Assembly: GCA_016840165.1 (NCBI GenBank)
Contig: JAEOSU010000092.1
Coordinates: 1 to 29,335, forward strand
Origin: Promethearchaeota archaeon
Lineage (GTDB): Archaea; Asgardarchaeota; Lokiarchaeia; Sigyniarchaeales; SOKP01
Direction of reading: 5' to 3'
DNA length: 29,335 bases
Part shown: piece by piece, positions 14,794-28,020 of the stretch
Position numbering within the stretch: the first letter of the stretch is position 1
How the letters are laid out: every line of letters begins with the position of its first letter
The notes under the pieces: generated by a model
Seen by the model: the letters and a program-made list of their open reading frames with translations, nothing else
Told to the model about the DNA's origin: nothing
Database searches by the model: none
Translations under genes and position numbers: made by a program

Positions 14794-16233
14794 TTGAATG
14801 ATTTATTCTCAGAAATTGATGATATTTTCCATTCGAAATCTCTTGCAGTTTATGGTGTGAGTAGAAAAGGCGGTTTGGGAAATATTTTACTACAAGGATT
14901 TATTGATCAAGAATTTCCTAATATATATATTATTAATCCCAAAATAACTGAACCTAACGTTGAAATAATGGGAGTACCTGTCTTCTCAGATTTGAAATCC
15001 ATTGATAAGCCAGTAGATCTAGTTATATGTTCTACTCATCCTAAATATGTTAAGGATATCATTATTGAATGTGGTCAATATGGAGTAAAAGCAGTAATAA
15101 TTTTTTCAGCCGGATTTGGTGAAAAGGGAGAAGAAGGGAAAAAAGCTGAAGAAGAATTATTAGAAATTGCTCGAAAGTATCAAATGAGATTAGTTGGCCC
15201 CAATTGTATGGGATTTTATTGTCCAGAGACGGGTTTATCGTTCTTTCCAGCCCTACCAACAGAATCAGGTCCGTTAGGATTCATTAGCCAAAGTGGTTCA
15301 ATCGCTAATATTATGGCTTTTGTTTCAATGTTGAAAGGAATTCATTTCTCAAAATCTATAAGCTATGGTAATAGCATTGATTTGGGTTTCAACGATTTTT
15401 TAGAATACTTAGGTGTTGACCCTAATACTCATCTAATAGCATGTTATATAGAAGGTGTAAAAGATGGAAGAAGATTTATTGAATTAGTAAAAAAAATAAA
15501 CAAACCTATAATTATCTGGAAAGTTGGAGTAACTCCTGCGGGATCAAAAGCAGCTCATTCCCATACAGGATCTCTATGTGGAGATGATAAAATATGGAAT
15601 AATCTTTTTGATCAATATGGGGTGTTCAGAGTCTATAATTTGGAAGAAATGGTTAGCACGATCCAAGCATTCATCAACCCCATGCCCGTTAAAAATCGTC
15701 GAGTTGCTATCATTTCAGGACCTGGGGGCCCCGCAGTATCATCAGCAGATGCGTGTGAAATGAATAATTTAAAGTTAGCAGATTTGACCAAAGAATCAAA
15801 AATGAAGCTCAAAGAATTTATTCCTGAATTCGGCTCAAGTATGTCTAACCCTATTGATATAAGTCTTCAAGCAACATTTGATCCAATATTGGAAAAAAAA
15901 ACCTATGAAATCGTGGGAAAAGACCCTAATGTTGATATGATACTTATTTATTTGACTATGTTGACTCCCAGATATAAGGATCTGATAGAATTACAAGAAG
16001 AGATTTCCAAACCAGTCGCTCTTGTATCTGCTATAGACGTTAATGTCTCGGCAGATTCTTTTAGTAGTACGGTTAGACGTTCTTTTATACATATAAGAGC
16101 CAAAAAGGTTCCTGGTATCATAAAAGAAATGAATGAGAAAGGGATTTCAATACATCCAAACGAACATCTAGCCGCTAAAGCGCTTTATAATATTTATCGA
16201 TTTTATAATTTTAAGAAATATCCGAAAGATTAG
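14794..16233 (+). CDS. acdA: ADP-forming acyl-CoA synthetase alpha subunit (CoA-binding plus ligase domains)
   Basis: Motifs FSAGFGE, GPNCMG, SQSG, phospho-His motif SHTGSL, SGPGG and NPID. TTG start with AGGTT upstream. Confidence 0.88.
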   Translation: MNDLFSEIDDIFHSKSLAVYGVSRKGGLGNILLQGFIDQEFPNIYIINPKITEPNVEIMGVPVFSDLKSIDKPVDLVICSTHPKYVKDIIIECGQYGVKAVIIFSAGFGEKGEEGKKAEEELLEIARKYQMRLVGPNCMGFYCPETGLSFFPALPTESGPLGFISQSGSIANIMAFVSMLKGIHFSKSISYGNSIDLGFNDFLEYLGVDPNTHLIACYIEGVKDGRRFIELVKKINKPIIIWKVGVTPAGSKAAHSHTGSLCGDDKIWNNLFDQYGVFRVYNLEEMVSTIQAFINPMPVKNRRVAIISGPGGPAVSSADACEMNNLKLADLTKESKMKLKEFIPEFGSSMSNPIDISLQATFDPILEKKTYEIVGKDPNVDMILIYLTMLTPRYKDLIELQEEISKPVALVSAIDVNVSADSFSSTVRRSFIHIRAKKVPGIIKEMNEKGISIHPNEHLAAKALYNIYRFYNFKKYPKD

Positions 16234-16258: not shown

Positions 16259-16663
16259 TTAATCTCCTTGAACTTGCACATATACACTTCTACTTCGGGG
16301 GCCATCGTATTCAGTAAACATAATTCCTTGCCATGTACCTAGCACGATACGATTATCGTGGATAAGGACCTCTAAAGAAGGACCAGTAAGACTCGATTTA
16401 ATGTGTGCATCAGAATTGCCTTCTAGATGAGAAAAACTTGAACTTCTCGGAATTAATTGTCCTAAAAAATTCACAATATCTTTCATAACTGCGGGATCGG
16501 CATTTTCATTGATAGTAATTCCGGCAGTAGTATGAGGCACGAAGATTCTGCATACTCCTTCTTTGATATTTGAATTCTTAACAATTTTTCTTATCTTATC
16601 TGTGATTTCTATTAAAACTTCTCGTTGTGGCGTTTTAACATTTAATTTTTGAAATATTATCAT
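16259..16663 (-). CDS. yjbQ: YjbQ/UPF0047 family protein (secondary thiamine-phosphate synthase)
   Basis: Motifs PHTTAGITINENADP, GNSDAHIKSSL and LGTWQGI..EYDGPR. Confidence 0.93.
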   Translation of the reverse strand: MIIFQKLNVKTPQREVLIEITDKIRKIVKNSNIKEGVCRIFVPHTTAGITINENADPAVMKDIVNFLGQLIPRSSSFSHLEGNSDAHIKSSLTGPSLEVLIHDNRIVLGTWQGIMFTEYDGPRSRSVYVQVQGD

Positions 16664-17340: not shown

Positions 17341-18102
17341 TTAAAATTTTCCGTGTTTTGCTTTCCCAACAGTAAATTCTTTACTCCCCTCAAGGTATTC
17401 TCCACTTTCCAAAGTGTTAAGTCCAAATTCAAACTCAAGTTCCATTGCATCTTCAATGTTCATCCCGAATTGGGTATAAACTGAAAGACGATCATTTCGC
17501 ATGCATGTTGTAGGAAATTCTGCAATTTCTTTAGCTAACTGTTCTGCTTTTTCTCGTGATTGACCATTATCAACGAGTCGATTTGCTAGACCCCATTGGT
17601 ATGCTTCTTGAGCAGTTATTGGACGTCCCGTTAAGATCATATCAAGTGCACGGCTCATCCCAATCAATCGAGGCAGTCTTACTGTACCTCCATCAATTAA
17701 TGGTACCCCAAATCGACGGCAAAATACTCCAAAAATAGCTGTTTTTTCTACAACTCGTAAATCACACCATAGTGCAAGCTCCAAACCTCCTGCTACGGCA
17801 TATCCTGCAATAGCAGCAATTACTGGTTTGGTTAATAGCATTCTTGTTGGTCCCATAGGACCATCTCCATCTCTTTCGATTCTATTACCTCTTCCTTCTG
17901 AGATTGCCTTAAGATTTGCTCCAGAACAAAAATCTCCGTTTGATCCCCATAAGACTGCCACTAGAGCTTTATTATCCCTCTCAAATAGTTGAAATGCATC
18001 TACAAGCTTTCGAGCTGTTTCTCCATCTACGGCATTTTTTACTTCAGGGTTATCAATGATAACGGTAAATACTGGATAATTACGATCAATTTTTATTGAC
18101 AT
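17341..18102 (-). CDS. Enoyl-CoA hydratase/isomerase (crotonase) family protein
   Basis: Motifs FCSGANL, KPVIAAIAGYAVAGGLELALWCD and FGVFCRRFGVPLIDGG. ATG 18102 is preferred over the upstream TTG at 18126. Confidence 0.92.
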   Translation of the reverse strand: MSIKIDRNYPVFTVIIDNPEVKNAVDGETARKLVDAFQLFERDNKALVAVLWGSNGDFCSGANLKAISEGRGNRIERDGDGPMGPTRMLLTKPVIAAIAGYAVAGGLELALWCDLRVVEKTAIFGVFCRRFGVPLIDGGTVRLPRLIGMSRALDMILTGRPITAQEAYQWGLANRLVDNGQSREKAEQLAKEIAEFPTTCMRNDRLSVYTQFGMNIEDAMELEFEFGLNTLESGEYLEGSKEFTVGKAKHGKF

Positions 18103-18429
18103 AAGAAAATTAGAATTTTGAATCAAATAAACTTATATCAATTAAATTTATAATATCAAAAATCAAATTTCTATGATTAAATCTAAAAATTAGTGTTTTC
18201 TCTCTGATTAGATAAGTTTTATTATTTATAGAAAATAACTTTATAATCCGTCTTCCATTTTTTCTGATTAATTCTAATAAATCAACTCTTCTTTTGCAAA
18301 GCAATAGTATTAAAAAGGAATACTTTCACTACGTAGATATATTAACAGGGTTAATAAATAATCATTGAATTTTCTCAAGATAGAGTTAGAGAAATTTTTA
18401 GAACTGATAGGTAAAGGTGATTAAAGATA

Positions 18430-19038: not shown

Positions 19039-19115
19039 TTATATTCAAAATCTAATTAAAATATAATCCTATATCTCTAAATTTTAAAAAAAATAAACAA
19101 TAAAAAATAGTAATA

Positions 19116-20204
19116 TTATTTTTGATTGACTAAGTATTCATTCATTTCAACAAATGAGCTAGTTCTAATAAGCGCTGCTTTCAGGAATTGAAAACCTATA
19201 TCATATGTGGAACCATCCCCACCAATATGAATTACGTAGGGCACTTCTCCTTCGAAATATCCCTTTGATTTTAGGATTTTGTATGAAGTGCTAATTGCAT
19301 CCGCAATCGTAGCTCCTGATTCGAAAAGATGATGGACCCATGGAACTTTCCAAGAGGTTACGAAATCTTTGGAAGTTGATACCTCTGAACAACTAGTGTT
19401 ATTAACATAGATCATATTATTCCCACTTACCGCATAAGCTGCGGTAGCCATTTGGTTAAGTACCATTCCTGCCCCGCAACCTGGACATAGTCCATGGCCT
19501 GGAAGCAAGTGTTCTTGCGGCTCCAACTTCTTTCGATTCACTCGATAAATATCTATTGGTTTTTCTGCGCCAAAAGCTTCAATTAACTTTTTGAGTCTGT
19601 TATTCCTTAGTTCTGTTAAATGGATAATTTCATCGATTTCTCGTTCCAAGAATTTCGGTTTAAATAGATGCTTGAATCGACCCATTGATTTAAGATATTC
19701 TATGAATTTTTCTTTATCAACATCTAATCCCCGATAATAAGAGAATTTTAGAACTCCTTCTTTTACTCTAATAGTATAAAGAGGCCAATAACCACAATCA
19801 GTTGCCAATTTTGAAATAGCTAAAGCATCACTTGCCCCGTGTCTCCACCCTCGCATGCAATCTGAATAACTTTGAATGAAAGCGGAGCCATTTGTTTTTA
19901 ACGCTTCAGCAATTTTTCCCATGAAATCGTTAGGATATGCAGGATTTGCGGTTGCTAAAAAGAGTGATTTTGTACCGAAAAACGCGAACGGAGTCACAAG
20001 ATCTTGTTTAATACCAATTTTTCCCGGGATTTTCTCGCCTCCTGGGCCTGTTGTGGTACTGGCAAAGGGAGGGGTTCCTCCTGATTCTTGGATGCCCGTA
20101 TTCATAAAAGCTTCGTTATCATAATTAAAGAAAAGAACATTGCTTTTTTCGTCTTTCGCAAGAATATCTTCAAATTTTATTATATTCCGTTCTGGTTGCG
20201 ACAT
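19116..20204 (-). CDS. porB: 2-oxoacid (pyruvate/ketoisovalerate-type):ferredoxin oxidoreductase beta subunit, circularly permuted
   Basis: YDNEAFMNTGIQ, DCMRGW and GRFKHL come before GHGLCPGCG, NTSC and GGDGSTYDIG. Start ATG 20204 lies 1 nt after the porA stop, with SD GGAGTGG. Confidence 0.88.
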   Translation of the reverse strand: MSQPERNIIKFEDILAKDEKSNVLFFNYDNEAFMNTGIQESGGTPPFASTTTGPGGEKIPGKIGIKQDLVTPFAFFGTKSLFLATANPAYPNDFMGKIAEALKTNGSAFIQSYSDCMRGWRHGASDALAISKLATDCGYWPLYTIRVKEGVLKFSYYRGLDVDKEKFIEYLKSMGRFKHLFKPKFLEREIDEIIHLTELRNNRLKKLIEAFGAEKPIDIYRVNRKKLEPQEHLLPGHGLCPGCGAGMVLNQMATAAYAVSGNNMIYVNNTSCSEVSTSKDFVTSWKVPWVHHLFESGATIADAISTSYKILKSKGYFEGEVPYVIHIGGDGSTYDIGFQFLKAALIRTSSFVEMNEYLVNQK

Positions 20205-20205
20205 T

Positions 20206-21435
20206 TTAGCTATCCACTCCATAAAGTTTGTCTTTTTTCTCTCGAACGCCGAGATACATATATAATTTCCCTTTCATATCAGACACATTTTCCATTTTCT
20301 TTTTCGCAACGTCAAACTCATCTCTAGTCACGTCCCGTCCACCTAACCCAACGATAAAGCTTCGAAAAATGGTCTTAAGAGGGTATAACGCTGAGGCAAT
20401 GGTCATCGAAAATGGTGGGAGCATTCCATTCAATGAGTCTGATTTTTCTAAAATAATCAATTTCTCAAGATTGTGCTCCTCAATAATTTTTTGTAGTTCT
20501 AAGTAAGGGAATGGTCTAAAGGTTCGAATTTTAATCAGACCGATATCTTTATTTTTTGTCATCCAACTTACAATATTTCCGCACATTGACCCCATAGTAA
20601 TAAATGCTGTTTTCGAAGAATTATCTAAATTATACGTCTCTATCATATGATATTCTCTACCTGTCGCTTTTCCGAATTCCTTAAACGCATTCTGCATAAT
20701 ATTTAATACCGGTTCTTTTGCCTCATCAAGATTTTTTCTACCTTCCATAAAAAAGCTTGGAGTGACAATTCCTCCCCATGTTCCAGGATGTTTTGTATTG
20801 ATCGTATGTCTTGGCTTTCTTGGAGTTAGTTTTCGGACAATCTCATCAGGGATCAAGGTTAATTTCTGAACTGAATGCGAGATAATAAACCCATCATGTA
20901 CGAACATAGTTGGGAATAATGATTCATCAGAAATCATAACCGATAAAATAGCAGCATCGTAAGTTTCTTGGACATTTTCAGATACTAAAGTATTCCATCC
21001 CATTTCTGAGTTAGTTTCAGTAAATTCCCAAGAATTCCAAATTGAAAGATTAGGTGAGTTAAATGCTCGTGCTGAGATCATCATCGTTAATGGGACACGC
21101 CATCCAACTGCCATTGGTAAGGCCTCTGTCATAAGTAAATAGCCTTGAGAAGCCGTGGCAGTAAAAGTTCTTGCACCAACTGCGCAAGCTGCGGTAGAAT
21201 AAGAGATAGCTGCCAATTCAGATTCTACATTGACAAATGCAGCTTTTAACCTTCCTTGATTTACTACATCAGATAGACCCTCAACCGCTTGTGTTTGAGG
21301 TGTAATAGGAAACGCACAGATGACGTCTGGATCCGTTTGCGTAACCGCACCCGCGACAGCATAATTCCCTATCATGGTCGTAACAATTGGCTCTTTAATT
21401 TCCTTGAAAAATAATCTCATTGGTTCAATAGACAT
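20206..21435 (-). CDS. porA: 2-oxoacid:ferredoxin oxidoreductase alpha subunit
   Basis: Motifs FPITPQT, VESE, TATASQG, DGFIISH, RTFRPFP and GLGGRD. SD GGAGGT supports ATG 21435. Confidence 0.92.
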   Translation of the reverse strand: MSIEPMRLFFKEIKEPIVTTMIGNYAVAGAVTQTDPDVICAFPITPQTQAVEGLSDVVNQGRLKAAFVNVESELAAISYSTAACAVGARTFTATASQGYLLMTEALPMAVGWRVPLTMMISARAFNSPNLSIWNSWEFTETNSEMGWNTLVSENVQETYDAAILSVMISDESLFPTMFVHDGFIISHSVQKLTLIPDEIVRKLTPRKPRHTINTKHPGTWGGIVTPSFFMEGRKNLDEAKEPVLNIMQNAFKEFGKATGREYHMIETYNLDNSSKTAFITMGSMCGNIVSWMTKNKDIGLIKIRTFRPFPYLELQKIIEEHNLEKLIILEKSDSLNGMLPPFSMTIASALYPLKTIFRSFIVGLGGRDVTRDEFDVAKKKMENVSDMKGKLYMYLGVREKKDKLYGVDS

Positions 21436-21436
21436 A

Positions 21437-22450
21437 TTAATTACCTCCTTCCTGTTCTTCAGGCACTGCACATGCTGCAGGACCTTGTCTTAGTTTCTTA
21501 CTGATGGCATCTACCGGACATACTTCTAAGCAGTTTAAGCAGGATTTGCAATGAAAGTGGTCGATCCCTGCCATGTGCCATAATCCATCTTCTCCTTTTT
21601 TCCGTAAAATGGCAAAATCTGGGCAGATATACCAGCATTGTGCACAATCGGTACATTTTTCTTCATCCCAAATTACATCCCATTCGCCCCAGCTTCCTGT
21701 ATTTACTTGATCACTTCCCACATTTATAACATCCTCATCGCAATACCACACACCTGCAAGATCTAATTCCTTATATCCTGGTAAATCTAAATCCACTTGC
21801 TGCCATGGAACCTTATTATCAGTAGTAAAATCGGGATCTATTCCAATATCATACACGCATGTGTCCTCTACTGCTTGTTTAATAGCTTCAATATTAGTCC
21901 CAGCAATTTTCCCTACAAATCTACGCATAATAGCATCAGCCAATTCATCTACACTAAAGATATGGGATACTCTTATTAAAGCCCCTAAGATAATTGTATT
22001 CGTGATGTTTCTGCCTAAAATATCAAGCGCAATTCGAGTAGCATCAATAGTCGCGATACTTATATCCTTACGTCCAACTATTTGTTGAATAGATACTTGG
22101 TCTAATGTAGTATTTACTATGAGCCAGCCTCCTTTTGGTAATCCAGCAGTCACATCGATTTCTCCCAATAATGAAGGATCTAATACAGATACAAAGTGTG
22201 GAGAGTATACTTGTTCATTTGATCGGATGAGGTCTGCATTAGCGGAAAGCCTGACATAACTTTCAGTTGGGCTGCCCATTCGTTCAGCTCCGAATCTTGG
22301 CTGACATATACCATAGCCATAAAACGCTTCGACACATAAGTTTGAAGCAGTCACGCCTCCTTGGCCACCTCTTGCGTGAAATCGAAGATTGACCGTATTC
22401 TCTTTTAGAACTTCCTTGACTTTTTCCGGAGTTAACATTTGATTTTTCAC
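21437..22450 (-). CDS. porG: 2-oxoacid:ferredoxin oxidoreductase gamma-delta fusion subunit (2x[4Fe-4S])
   Basis: Gamma motifs RGGQGG, FGAERMGSP and NTIILGA. Delta motifs TGSW, CTDCAQCWYICP and CKSCLNCLEVCP. Confidence 0.9.
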   Translation of the reverse strand: MKNQMLTPEKVKEVLKENTVNLRFHARGGQGGVTASNLCVEAFYGYGICQPRFGAERMGSPTESYVRLSANADLIRSNEQVYSPHFVSVLDPSLLGEIDVTAGLPKGGWLIVNTTLDQVSIQQIVGRKDISIATIDATRIALDILGRNITNTIILGALIRVSHIFSVDELADAIMRRFVGKIAGTNIEAIKQAVEDTCVYDIGIDPDFTTDNKVPWQQVDLDLPGYKELDLAGVWYCDEDVINVGSDQVNTGSWGEWDVIWDEEKCTDCAQCWYICPDFAILRKKGEDGLWHMAGIDHFHCKSCLNCLEVCPVDAISKKLRQGPAACAVPEEQEGGN

Positions 22451-22664: not shown

Positions 22665-23981
22665 GTGTTGAAGTCAAACAAAAACAGGGTTAATGATAAG
22701 ATCACCCCTGATTTCATGCCAATGATCAGGATCGTTTTCTGGAATAGCATGGGGTTTTTCTTCTTTTGGTTTCTTGGTCAATTTGCAATTATTCAGCTTT
22801 TTGAAGCAACGCCAGCAGAATTAGGACTTTCATTTTCGGGGCAAACTTTCGGAGGTCTTTTAAGTGCTCCTATAGTCGGATATCTCACTGATAGAATGTC
22901 AAAAAAAATTTTAGTTTTAATTGGCAGTTTTGGCAGAGGGATTGCCTATATCGTCATGTACCTAGGTATTTTAATATCCTTATTACCAGTATTCGCATTT
23001 GGCTTGTTCTTTTTAGGGTTCTTCGTCGGTTTCTTTTGGAGTCCTTTAGATGCCCTCATAGCTCAAAAATCTCATAAAACATATAGATCCTCTGCATTTG
23101 GAATTCAAGGAGGCATGCTAGGATGGGGGAATCTTACTGGATCTGCCTTGAGCATATTTATTTTTCTGATAACAAATATACTCGTACCTAATAATGCTTT
23201 TTTAGTCTATAGTCCTCTAGTTTTATTTATGATTTCAAATGTCTACGCAGGAATAATATTCAATAAAAATGTGGATGAGGACTTAACTTATGAAATATAT
23301 ACTAATAATCTTTCTGAAAATGAGGAGATAACAAATAAAAATAAGGTAAAAATAACAGAATATGAAGAAACACATCAGGATACAAGAAAAAGTCTTTTAA
23401 ATTTCTACTTAGGATTTTCAATTTTAGTTCTGGCGATCTTAACGATCAATATAAATCAAACTATTGCACCCCCCTTTTTTATGTTATATCTGAATGATGA
23501 AATCGGTGTAGTAAATCCAATCGCAATCATGTTAATTTATCTTCCTTCTCAAATCATATCTTTATTATTGGCTCCAAAAATGGGAAAAATAGCTGATAAA
23601 ATAAGTCCTATTATTGGCATCATATTAGTAAGTGGATTTGGGGCATTAGTTACCTTTTTGATCATAAATAGTGTAAATGGATTGATGTTTGCAATAATAT
23701 TATTACTAGACTCTACATTCGCTTGGGCGGGAAACCTAATTATCCAAAACGTCACCAGTCGGATTTCTAAAATGCATCGAGGCAAGGTTTTTGGCTTAGC
23801 ACGATGGATGAGTTTTATTGGGGCGGTAATCGGCCCGCTTATAGGAGGATGGACCTATGCAGAATTTGGTTCCACCACTCCATTTGTAATTTCGATTTTT
23901 GTTGAACTTTCGGTTATTCCACTCTATATATCAGCCATCAAGTTCTTGAAACCTCATATGGCTGAAAAATTAGAAGATTAA
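22665..23981 (+). CDS. MFS transporter
   Basis: 12 TM helices in a 6+6 arrangement, motif A GYLTDRMSKK, and GKIADK. Confidence 0.9.
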   Translation: MLKSNKNRVNDKITPDFMPMIRIVFWNSMGFFFFWFLGQFAIIQLFEATPAELGLSFSGQTFGGLLSAPIVGYLTDRMSKKILVLIGSFGRGIAYIVMYLGILISLLPVFAFGLFFLGFFVGFFWSPLDALIAQKSHKTYRSSAFGIQGGMLGWGNLTGSALSIFIFLITNILVPNNAFLVYSPLVLFMISNVYAGIIFNKNVDEDLTYEIYTNNLSENEEITNKNKVKITEYEETHQDTRKSLLNFYLGFSILVLAILTININQTIAPPFFMLYLNDEIGVVNPIAIMLIYLPSQIISLLLAPKMGKIADKISPIIGIILVSGFGALVTFLIINSVNGLMFAIILLLDSTFAWAGNLIIQNVTSRISKMHRGKVFGLARWMSFIGAVIGPLIGGWTYAEFGSTTPFVISIFVELSVIPLYISAIKFLKPHMAEKLED

Positions 23982-25958: not shown

Positions 25959-26459
25959 TTATTTTGACATCTTATCTGCGATTTTTACATAATCAGGAAT
26001 AAAATTAGTCTTTAACAGATTTGAGTTACCTGCAGCTATCAATTGACCATTCATATCAAATATTTCAGCAGTCATATGGATTATATTTCTTCCTTCTCTG
26101 ATAACCTTTCCGATAACCCGCACATTCTCTCCAACTTTTACTTTACCCAAGAAGTCTACATGAAAATCTATGCTAATTGGAAAACCTTCATAACCAAGGG
26201 TCGTGGAAGTTATTCCTATACAATCATCCATTAAGCCGCATTGCATCCCTCCATGTAATAAACCAGTAGGATTGGCCATTTCCGGACGAACGAGAAATTC
26301 CAATTCCATCTCCCCGCGTTTTACCCTAATTATTTTGTAATTCAACCATTTTGAGAATGGTGGAGCGGGAAAATCTTTCATTTCTTTTCCTTTGTAATCA
26401 TTAAATAGTTTAACCATTCTTTGGGAGCGCTTTTCAATCTTTTCATCTAATTTAGACAT
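25959..26459 (-). CDS. PaaI-family hot-dog thioesterase
   Basis: Motif NPTGLLHGG...MDD. Confidence 0.9.
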   Translation of the reverse strand: MSKLDEKIEKRSQRMVKLFNDYKGKEMKDFPAPPFSKWLNYKIIRVKRGEMELEFLVRPEMANPTGLLHGGMQCGLMDDCIGITSTTLGYEGFPISIDFHVDFLGKVKVGENVRVIGKVIREGRNIIHMTAEIFDMNGQLIAAGNSNLLKTNFIPDYVKIADKMSK

Positions 26460-26610: not shown

Positions 26611-28020
26611 TTGAATGTGAAAGATCTTTCCTTTATTAACGATATTAAATCTATGGCTGTCATTGGAACTTCTGCAAAGCGTAATTTTTTCTTTTTGAAA
26701 AATCATCAAGAAAGCTTTAAGGGATCCCTCTATGCGATCAATCCGACTGTGAAAGAGATTCCAGACTTTCCAAAAGAAAATATATATAAATCTATTAAAG
26801 AAGTTCCGGGAAAAGTTGATTTTGCTTTTATTACCGTTCCCGCTAAACAAGTATTACCTGTAATTGATGAATGCGTGGAAAAGGGAGTTAAATTAGTAAG
26901 TATCTTTACTGCAGAATTTTCCGATGCCGGTACTAAAGAGGGAATTGAATTAGAAAAAGAATTACTCACGCGTGCGGATAATAAAATTAGAATACTAGGT
27001 CCTAATGGGATGGGGCTTTTTTATCCAAAACTAGGAATAGCCTGGAGAGGGTTTTTCCCAAATACTCCAGGAAATATAGGTTTAATTGCTCAGTCCGGAG
27101 GGATGTGTAACATAGCGATTTATACATCTATGGAATTAGGATTTAACTTTTCAAAAGTATTTTCCTTTGGAAATGGTGCTGATCTAGATTTTGTTGATCT
27201 TCTTTATTTTTTAAGTAATGATCCTGAAACAAAGGTAATTTTACTTTATATTGAAGGAATTAAAGATAATCGTTTTGATGCCTTGAAAGAAGTTTTATCT
27301 CAAAATAAAAAACCAATCGTCGCCCTAAAAGGTGGCGTATCCGAAACGGGTTCAAAAGCGGTGAGAACTCATACCGCATCAATTTCAGGTAATAACAAAA
27401 TATGGTCTGCATTGTTTAAACAATACAATATAATTGAAGTTGACTCTTTAGAGCAGTTACTCTATACTGCTCAAATTATTGATTTTTATGGAGTTAATGA
27501 ATTTAAAAACGTAGCGGTGTTTAGTATTAGCGGTGGATACGGAGTTGTATTAGTGGATTTAATCGAAAAATATGGTATGAATGTTCCTCCCTTTAGTAAT
27601 GAGATTCAACTCAAACTTGATGAAAAATTCTTTATTAATGGCACCAGTTCGAATAATCCTCTTGATGTTGCCGCGCAAATGTTTCATAGTCACACGCTTG
27701 TTGAAATAGTAGATACCGCATTATCCGATAAGAAAATTGACACATTAATTATGGATATGCCAAGCTGGTATTTCGATCCTAAATATTACATTACTCGAGA
27801 TACGAATTTCAATGAGAATATAGAAAAGGTATTCAAACTTGGATTAAAACGTTATAAACCTCTATTTCCAATAATACAAGAGGCACATTGCCCAGAAGTG
27901 AGTATTCGAATAGCAAGGAAACTTAATCAAAATAAAATAGCTATATATCGAAATCCACTTGATTTCATTCCATTATTACCAAAAATTACTATCTATAAAA
28001 GAAAATCTCTATCAAAATAA
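26611..28020 (+). CDS. acdA: ADP-forming acyl-CoA synthetase alpha subunit (second paralog)
   Basis: Motifs GPNGMG, AQSGG, phospho-His THTASI, SISGG and NPLD. Confidence 0.88.
   Translation: MNVKDLSFINDIKSMAVIGTSAKRNFFFLKNHQESFKGSLYAINPTVKEIPDFPKENIYKSIKEVPGKVDFAFITVPAKQVLPVIDECVEKGVKLVSIFTAEFSDAGTKEGIELEKELLTRADNKIRILGPNGMGLFYPKLGIAWRGFFPNTPGNIGLIAQSGGMCNIAIYTSMELGFNFSKVFSFGNGADLDFVDLLYFLSNDPETKVILLYIEGIKDNRFDALKEVLSQNKKPIVALKGGVSETGSKAVRTHTASISGNNKIWSALFKQYNIIEVDSLEQLLYTAQIIDFYGVNEFKNVAVFSISGGYGVVLVDLIEKYGMNVPPFSNEIQLKLDEKFFINGTSSNNPLDVAAQMFHSHTLVEIVDTALSDKKIDTLIMDMPSWYFDPKYYITRDTNFNENIEKVFKLGLKRYKPLFPIIQEAHCPEVSIRIARKLNQNKIAIYRNPLDFIPLLPKITIYKRKSLSK

Follow-up and report, generated by a model that had tools for sequence, protein, structure and literature searches.

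The locus described here raises the question of whether the beta subunit of a 2-oxoacid:ferredoxin oxidoreductase (OFOR) can be circularly permuted in nature and still work. It lies in a stretch of 29,335 nt from a Promethearchaeota archaeon (class Lokiarchaeia, order Sigyniarchaeales; GenBank assembly GCA_016840165.1, contig JAEOSU010000092.1, positions 1 to 29,335), referred to below as the window. An earlier note, made from the letters of this stretch, had proposed that an open reading frame (ORF) on the reverse strand encodes a genuine and functional permutant of PorB, the beta subunit of pyruvate:ferredoxin oxidoreductase (POR), with the motif that binds thiamine diphosphate (ThDP) split between the two parts of the chain. 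The follow-up analysis reported here leads to the same view. The permutation is real and conserved across one archaeal class, the Lokiarchaeia, and, judging by sequence and structural models, we give a probability of about 0.85 to the whole reading, i.e. a working permuted POR/VOR-type beta subunit in an alpha/gamma-delta enzyme, derived from a single event that would have preceded the radiation of the class.

The evidence for the permutation comes from the reversed order in which the protein matches canonical PorB. Search with phmmer against all chains of the Protein Data Bank (PDB) returned the POR beta subunit of Methanosarcina acetivorans (9bt4, chain C) with an overall value of 2.8e-46, matched as two stretches whose order was reversed: aa 28-199 were aligned to residues 118-282 (6e-26) and aa 232-353 to residues 3-115 (2.8e-17). 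The identical two-piece reversed pattern was obtained in the same search with the beta subunit of oxalate oxidoreductase (5c4i_C), and the NCBIfam PorB model was also matched in two pieces, profile positions 117-292 first and 4-122 second (1.1e-63), as the earlier note had expected of a search with PorB profiles. Homology to both halves of PorB is therefore apparent in phmmer and NCBIfam alike, and the reversed match is far beyond chance. It follows from these matches that the chain has been cut after the post-GDG helix and ahead of the strand preceding YDNE (between residues 115 and 118 of 9bt4_C), in the very loop to which it had been assigned before. The domain order is accordingly not colinear, and the score stays below the PorB equivalog cut-off. 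The Pfam model TPP_enzyme_C was matched only by aa 22-117 (profile positions 68-150; 23.1 bits vs cut-off of 21.9); a contiguous GDG-x(24-27)-N is absent from this match, as the GDG is situated 300 residues downstream.

Distribution of the cofactor motifs along the chain follows the same arrangement. The back half of canonical PorB, which comes first, carries the YDNE..NTG.Q half of the ThDP/Mg motif (Y34-D-N-E...Q45, with N36), C122 in DCMRGW as the fourth cluster cysteine, and G181-RFKHL-186. The front half follows with the GHxxCxGC motif (GHGLCPGCG, C246 and C249), NTSC with C278, the GDG (335-337) within GGDGSTYDIG (334-343) and the post-GDG helix, and the chain ends 25 residues further on; all of these positions are those given in the earlier note. 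The N-terminal lead-in (aa 7-27) is without counterpart at that position in canonical PorB and was modelled by AlphaFold2 (AF2) with predicted local distance difference test (pLDDT) values of 94-96 for the block. Helix 193-217 overlaps the end of the back half, and the equivalent of the canonical C-terminal helix extends to about aa 207-215; therefore, of the linker of about 25 aa previously described between the halves, only some 10-20 residues within aa 200-231 are genuinely new. The 368-aa ORF likewise stands, except for its first Met as the start: translation probably begins at M7, the second ATG (position 20204), giving 362 aa, because most orthologues begin there and because this ATG is located one base past the porA stop.

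Compared with 9bt4 chain C, the permuted subunit shows homology in both halves (about 30-40% identity) and has in common with it the four cluster cysteines, the GDG and YDNE..NTG.Q residues for ThDP/Mg, GRFxHL, an operon shared with the alpha, gamma and delta genes and the predicted contact surface with alpha. It differs by the reversed order, by the GDG-x(about 26)-N motif being divided between the two chain ends, by about 60 extra residues (lead-in, linker and tail) and by a score below the NCBIfam PorB cut-off; in addition, gamma and delta are fused in its operon, unlike in the four-subunit POR of M. acetivorans. The beta subunit of oxalate oxidoreductase from Moorella thermoacetica (5c4i/5exd/5exe) was the second-best match in both sequence and structure, but it has the canonical order and another substrate, and use of oxalate is without support here. 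The permuted subunit is the third paralogue in the source genome, beside two canonical-order POR/VOR-type beta subunits (contigs C96 and C104 of genome G000; P0121 and P0122) of the same family and the same alpha-beta operon kind, which are about 30-39% identical to it.

The same permutation was found in all 119 full-length relatives, down to 55% identity, that were recovered in a large protein search covering NCBI, JGI, ENA and Logan assemblies, so that relatives of canonical order, which the earlier note had named as a sign of misassembly, were not among them. A six-frame search revealed a colinear full-length copy in 131 out of 400 Asgard species genomes, five of the carriers being closed single-contig genomes. 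Carriers made up 107 of 134 genomes in the family of the window, 17 of 19 in other families of the order and 5 of 7 elsewhere in the class, with a single match among 239 genomes outside the class. Three of the five closed genomes are those of both cultured Asgard archaea, Promethearchaeum syntrophicum MK-D1 (DSAG12_00808, QEE14985.1) and Candidatus Lokiarchaeum ossiferum (NEF87_002873, UYP46588.1), and of Candidatus Harpocratesius repetitus. Among the best 150 of the 50%-identity representatives of 1.8 billion proteins, 135 were canonical, and the permuted order was represented by one full-length cluster (P0124, Helarchaeota) and by fragments. Reads across the junction had been asked for previously; a contig from an independent study (X6 record 17; 257 nt, positions 19413-19669) covers the whole linker with 0 differences, and further contigs cross the start and the stop of the beta gene at 100% identity.

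It should be added that the sole match outside the class (G075:C23:1999-2799) is a contig-end fragment, 82% identical, from a bin of 5.9 Mb that is contaminated to 8%; mis-binning is its probable source, and transfer the less likely one. In one Helarchaeota metagenome-assembled genome (MAG), the permuted gene occurs as two adjacent ORFs, P0274 (223 aa) and P0275 (104 aa), under ACTSR3_09440/09445; this split reflects either a frameshift or an error of sequencing.

When 55 family members, with identities as low as 54%, were aligned, the cysteines C246, C249, C278 and C122 were invariant, and so were G335, D336, G337, Y34, D35, N36, E37, N41, T42, G43 and Q45. The four ligands of the [4Fe-4S] cluster and the ThDP/Mg residues are thus all present in the sequence, the latter not contiguous in the chain. 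Among close relatives, pN was 0.035-0.09 against pS of 0.4-0.8. The ratio of nonsynonymous to synonymous rates (dN/dS) was 0.06 in the least saturated pair and about 0.04-0.06 overall, and dN was far below dS in every segment, including the parts specific to the permuted form (lead-in ~0.15, linker ~0.08, tail ~0.14), these ratios being rough because of saturation of dS for most pairs. This pattern indicates purifying selection. From the invariant cofactor residues, the excess of dS over dN, the conserved operon, the modelled complex with alpha and the transcription of the orthologue in MK-D1, we infer, in line with the original proposal and with strong backing, that the permuted beta subunit is very probably functional.

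The AF2 monomer, calculated from the family alignment, had a predicted template modelling score (pTM) of 0.86 and a mean pLDDT of 79.8. Foldseek and VIA-align are sequential aligners and cover one half at a time; with both tools, each half separately fitted solved OFOR beta chains or domain VI of PFOR. For the back half, VIA-align gave Z of 11.8-13.7 and a root-mean-square deviation (rmsd) of 3.0-4.3 over 174-189 residues on PFOR, OOR and POR structures; in the front half, 107 residues were superposed on 5b47_B at rmsd of 2.4. The modelled complex of alpha and beta reached an ipSAE of 0.81 vs 0.00 for the best control, a mark attained by 58 of 80 solved complexes and by 2 of 110 mismatched pairs; since solved OFOR complexes exist, this score shows likeness to them and is not proof of binding. 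At least 97% of contacts were common to the model runs, and partner pLDDT was at least 86. In this model, the post-GDG helix (345-353) and the new C-terminal tail, through residues 357, 361, 363 and 364, would pack on alpha 64-90, the segment holding an invariant ESE motif, and a PP:PYR interface with alpha is thereby predicted.

The three genes, for the fused gamma-delta, the alpha and the beta subunit, are tightly coupled in the window (Table 1). Their order was kept in 15 out of 19 other loci compared, three ending at a contig edge and one being without an adjacent gamma-delta gene; in 17 of these 19 loci, two of them at a contig edge, an alpha of 67-93% identity lay next to the permuted beta. 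The subunit is hence encoded together with alpha, gamma and delta, and the gamma-delta-alpha-beta order noted earlier as canonical is kept, with the amendment that gamma and delta form one ORF. For alpha, the start is likely the ATG at 21435 (MSIEPM...), as all its orthologues begin at this codon, 12 codons past the listed GTG and two bases after the gamma-delta stop. The T-rich tract behind the beta gene is a possible archaeal oligo-T terminator; scanning past the beta stop for hairpin-type terminators found none, T-runs only. In one closed genome (G279), the beta gene is unlinked, with a 61%-identical cognate alpha about 0.54 Mb away. The beta frame of this genome (L022, G279:C1, 4549-5610) lacks an ATG, GTG or TTG codon ahead of the conserved lead-in (ITIEEM...) and may use a non-canonical start codon, of a kind the earlier note had suspected for other genes of the window.

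Table 1. Features of the permuted beta gene, its operon and neighbouring genes in the window
Feature	Position	Strand	Description
T-rich tract	19086..19107	-	T6 + T8 runs directly 3' of the beta stop; sequence reading
Permuted OFOR beta subunit gene	19116..20222	-	368-aa ORF, span including stop
C-terminal tail, aa 354-368	19119..19163	-	15 residues; new chain end after post-GDG helix
Front half of canonical PorB, aa 232-353	19164..19529	-	9bt4_C 3-115
Join of old C-terminus to old N-terminus, aa 200-231	19530..19625	-	Strand 218-227, preceded by the remainder of helix 193-217
Back half of canonical PorB, aa 28-199	19626..20141	-	9bt4_C 118-282
N-terminal lead-in, aa 7-27	20142..20204	-	Modelled short strand 12-16 and helix 17-21
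Alpha subunit gene, porA-type	20206..21471	-	POR_N + PFOR_II domains; listed start GTG
Fused gamma-delta gene	21437..22450	-	337 aa; POR domain aa 28-195, 2x[4Fe-4S] ferredoxin domain aa 257-318
ADP-forming acyl-CoA synthetase alpha-like gene	14794-16233	+	
UPF0047 (YjbQ-like) gene	16259-16663	-	2.5 kb from operon
Enoyl-CoA hydratase gene	17341-18126		
Major facilitator superfamily (MFS) transporter gene	22665-23981		Divergent from operon
Thioesterase gene	25959-26459		
ADP-forming acyl-CoA synthetase alpha-like gene	26611-28020	+	

Beyond the three-gene operon, no conserved neighbours were found in the distant genomes compared. The further genes of the window listed in Table 1, i.e. two for ADP-forming acyl-CoA synthetase-like proteins, an enoyl-CoA hydratase, a thioesterase and an MFS transporter, fit with acyl-CoA metabolism, in an arrangement that does not accompany the operon in distant genomes. 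Some members of UPF0047 are annotated as secondary thiamine-phosphate synthases, and the proximity of such a gene to one for a ThDP enzyme may be a coincidence.

Taken together, we propose that the protein would correspond to the ThDP-diphosphate-binding PP domain with the proximal [4Fe-4S] cluster of a POR/VOR-type OFOR, its chain being circularly permuted. The old termini would be joined by a short structured linker and the new ones placed in a surface loop between the post-GDG helix and the strand preceding YDNE, so that the folded domain would be the usual one. The GDG residue D336, close to the C-terminal end, and N36 from YDNE, close to the N-terminal end, would meet in space and hold Mg-ThDP, whereas C246, C249, C278 and C122 would hold the cluster. 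Assembled with alpha and the gamma-delta fusion, the beta subunit would form an enzyme for the oxidative decarboxylation of a 2-oxoacid with CoA, yielding acyl-CoA, CO2 and reduced ferredoxin. The permutation would have arisen once, before the radiation of Lokiarchaeia, and would have been maintained thereafter by purifying selection. As to the substrate, pyruvate is the most likely one to judge from the sequences, as a best guess and nothing more: the best NCBIfam models were PorB for the permuted beta and PorA_Arch for its alpha, both with scores below the cut-offs, and the two canonical beta paralogues leaned slightly to the VOR beta subfamily. Assignment of a substrate from NCBIfam was abandoned, as all three OFOR sets scored below the cut-offs and the POR and VOR scores were close.

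Several other explanations were weighed against this proposal. The window originates from a MAG of 105 contigs with 6.3% contamination, a setting in which pieces of porB could have been joined in the wrong order by assembly or binning; since five closed genomes, two cultured organisms and over 100 independent assemblies have the same order, and contigs from another study cross join, start and stop at 100% identity, misassembly is excluded and an artefact of either kind is hardly conceivable. We also consider it very improbable that the gene is a decaying or non-catalytic paralogue, for instance one that has lost ThDP binding and acts as a scaffold or a regulatory subunit. Such a role could be reconciled with the two canonical beta paralogues in the same genome, with the absence of the gene from some near-complete relatives and with its split into two ORFs in one Helarchaeota MAG, but not easily with the invariance of all cofactor ligands, the dN/dS of about 0.04-0.06 and the co-transcription at ordinary levels in MK-D1. 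OFORs are dimers of heteromers, and the complex model places the new termini at the alpha interface beside the cofactor site; both points would suit a three-dimensional domain swap, in which the GDG half of one beta and the YDNE half of a second beta complete the site between chains. The AF2 monomer is nevertheless one compact unit (pTM 0.86), the linker is structured and conserved, and no data call for a swap, which we therefore regard as very unlikely.

Closer to the proposal itself is a functional permuted OFOR that acts on another 2-oxoacid (2-oxobutyrate, branched-chain, aromatic, oxalate or glyoxylate) or serves mainly as a reductive synthase. The long stem branch of the permuted clade (1.3 changes per site), the scores of all three OFOR sets below every NCBIfam equivalog cut-off with close values for POR, VOR and OOR, the acyl-CoA-related genes and divergent transporter in the window, and the flanks that are not conserved in distant genomes would agree with it. 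PorB and PorA_Arch as best models, in contrast with the lean of the canonical paralogues to VOR, together with the KEGG assignments K00170/K00169 and the use of the orthologue as POR by Imachi et al. point the other way, and we deem this alternative possible, if rather unlikely. The preferred reading, a working permuted POR/VOR-type beta subunit, has its own weak points. The permuted beta scored 215 bits vs the PorB equivalog cut-off of 405, and its alpha 308 bits vs 550. No match was detected in 27 of 134 genomes of the same family, some of them 98-100% complete, which means that certain lineages can do without the gene. The active-site loops 38-49 and 57-71 are of low confidence in the AF2 monomer, and the predicted rebuilding of the ThDP site, with D336 near N36, is derived from the high pTM and the separate fit of each half; the favourable score of the complex model may reflect likeness to solved OFOR complexes, and the saturation of dS weighs in the same direction.

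Concerning the origin of the permutation, in a tree of de-permuted and canonical beta subunits the permuted proteins formed one clade (SH-aLRT 100) with a stem of 1.3 changes per site. This clade was placed in an unresolved polytomy, and the two canonical paralogues from the source genome were not its sister group; one ancient event, preceding the radiation of the class Lokiarchaeia, is the simplest reading. The nearest canonical matches, a fused 852-aa form from Altiarchaeales and proteins from Bathyarchaeia, were uninformative with respect to the sister group. The former (cluster P0128) is the closest canonical-order relative by score, has its beta part at about 550-852 and is labelled ‘hypothetical’ at NCBI. 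The usual route to circular permutation is duplication followed by truncation of the ends. The tail and the lead-in resembled by eye the YDNE strand and the post-GDG helix, i.e. vestigial duplicated ends; this candidate was dropped, since in a profile-profile column-shuffle test of tail and lead-in vs the canonical GDG-to-NTG segment the resemblance was not significant (z 0.2-0.7, p 0.25-0.45), in keeping with the earlier statement that no segment is duplicated. No tandem-fused intermediate, seen as a match with more than two stretches, was found among the 150 best representatives. Two apparent split-gene intermediates, P0197 and P0209 (about 190-200 aa, ‘C-half only’), turned out to be contig-end fragments from clusters that are otherwise full-length and canonical.

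The orthologous operon of MK-D1, DSAG12_00808-00810, connects the family to published data. Its beta is 58% identical to the one described here and colinear with it over aa 14-364; the same permutation is therefore present in MK-D1. Supplementary Table 3 of Imachi et al. 2020 (PMC7015854) gives DSAG12_00808 as Prokka VorB, COG1013, arCOG01601 and K00170, with 286 reads per kilobase per million (RPKM), next to 372 RPKM for DSAG12_00809 (alpha) and 314 RPKM for DSAG12_00810 (gamma; listed as ‘delta/gamma subunit’ by these authors). In Supplementary Table 4 of the same paper, DSAG12_00808-00810 stand for pyruvate:ferredoxin oxidoreductase (EC 1.2.7.1) in the ‘2-oxoacid/pyruvate degradation’ step. 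A cultured organism thus transcribes this family, which had already been entered as POR; the operon is treated there as an ordinary POR, and the permutation goes unmentioned in the parts of that paper drawn on here. For the source organism of the window itself, no RNA dataset containing it was listed in the public runs. The expectation that standard annotation would miss the gene was borne out for NCBI, where permuted betas are labelled ‘hypothetical’, but not for Prokka (VorB), KEGG (K00170), COG1013/arCOG01601 and IMG, all of which name a beta subunit. What annotation overlooks is the permutation and not the gene. Full-text searching of the literature, both for the locus tags and for OFORs or ThDP enzymes with a permuted chain, brought up no description, just as the earlier note had known of no described example, and the permutation of this known enzyme subunit appears to be undescribed as such.

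The current model of Asgard metabolism (Imachi et al. 2020, PMC7015854) assigns the energy-yielding step to OFORs, and the operon listed as the POR of MK-D1 is an orthologue of the permuted form. The finding also explains the ‘hypothetical’ label given by the NCBI pipeline to a gene of central metabolism in hundreds of genomes, and the permutation may serve as a clean, synapomorphy-like marker for Lokiarchaeia. A natural cut of the classic GDG...N ThDP motif, kept by selection class-wide, shows what the fold of the PP domain tolerates and offers a ready-made test case for how the placement of termini affects cofactor binding and subunit assembly; as both cultured hosts exist, the enzyme is open to purification and structure solving. 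We would expect moderate to good interest among enzymologists, protein-evolution researchers and Asgard biologists. Tentatively, and with considerable doubt, one may go further and suppose that the permuted enzyme is the main ATP-yielding entry point of pyruvate or 2-oxoacids in Lokiarchaeia, and that moving both chain ends next to the ThDP site, at the interface with alpha, was adaptive and not neutral. If so, cofactor loading, assembly, substrate range or oxygen sensitivity would be altered in comparison with canonical POR, and this would be the first natural ThDP enzyme with a diphosphate-binding motif built from both chain ends.

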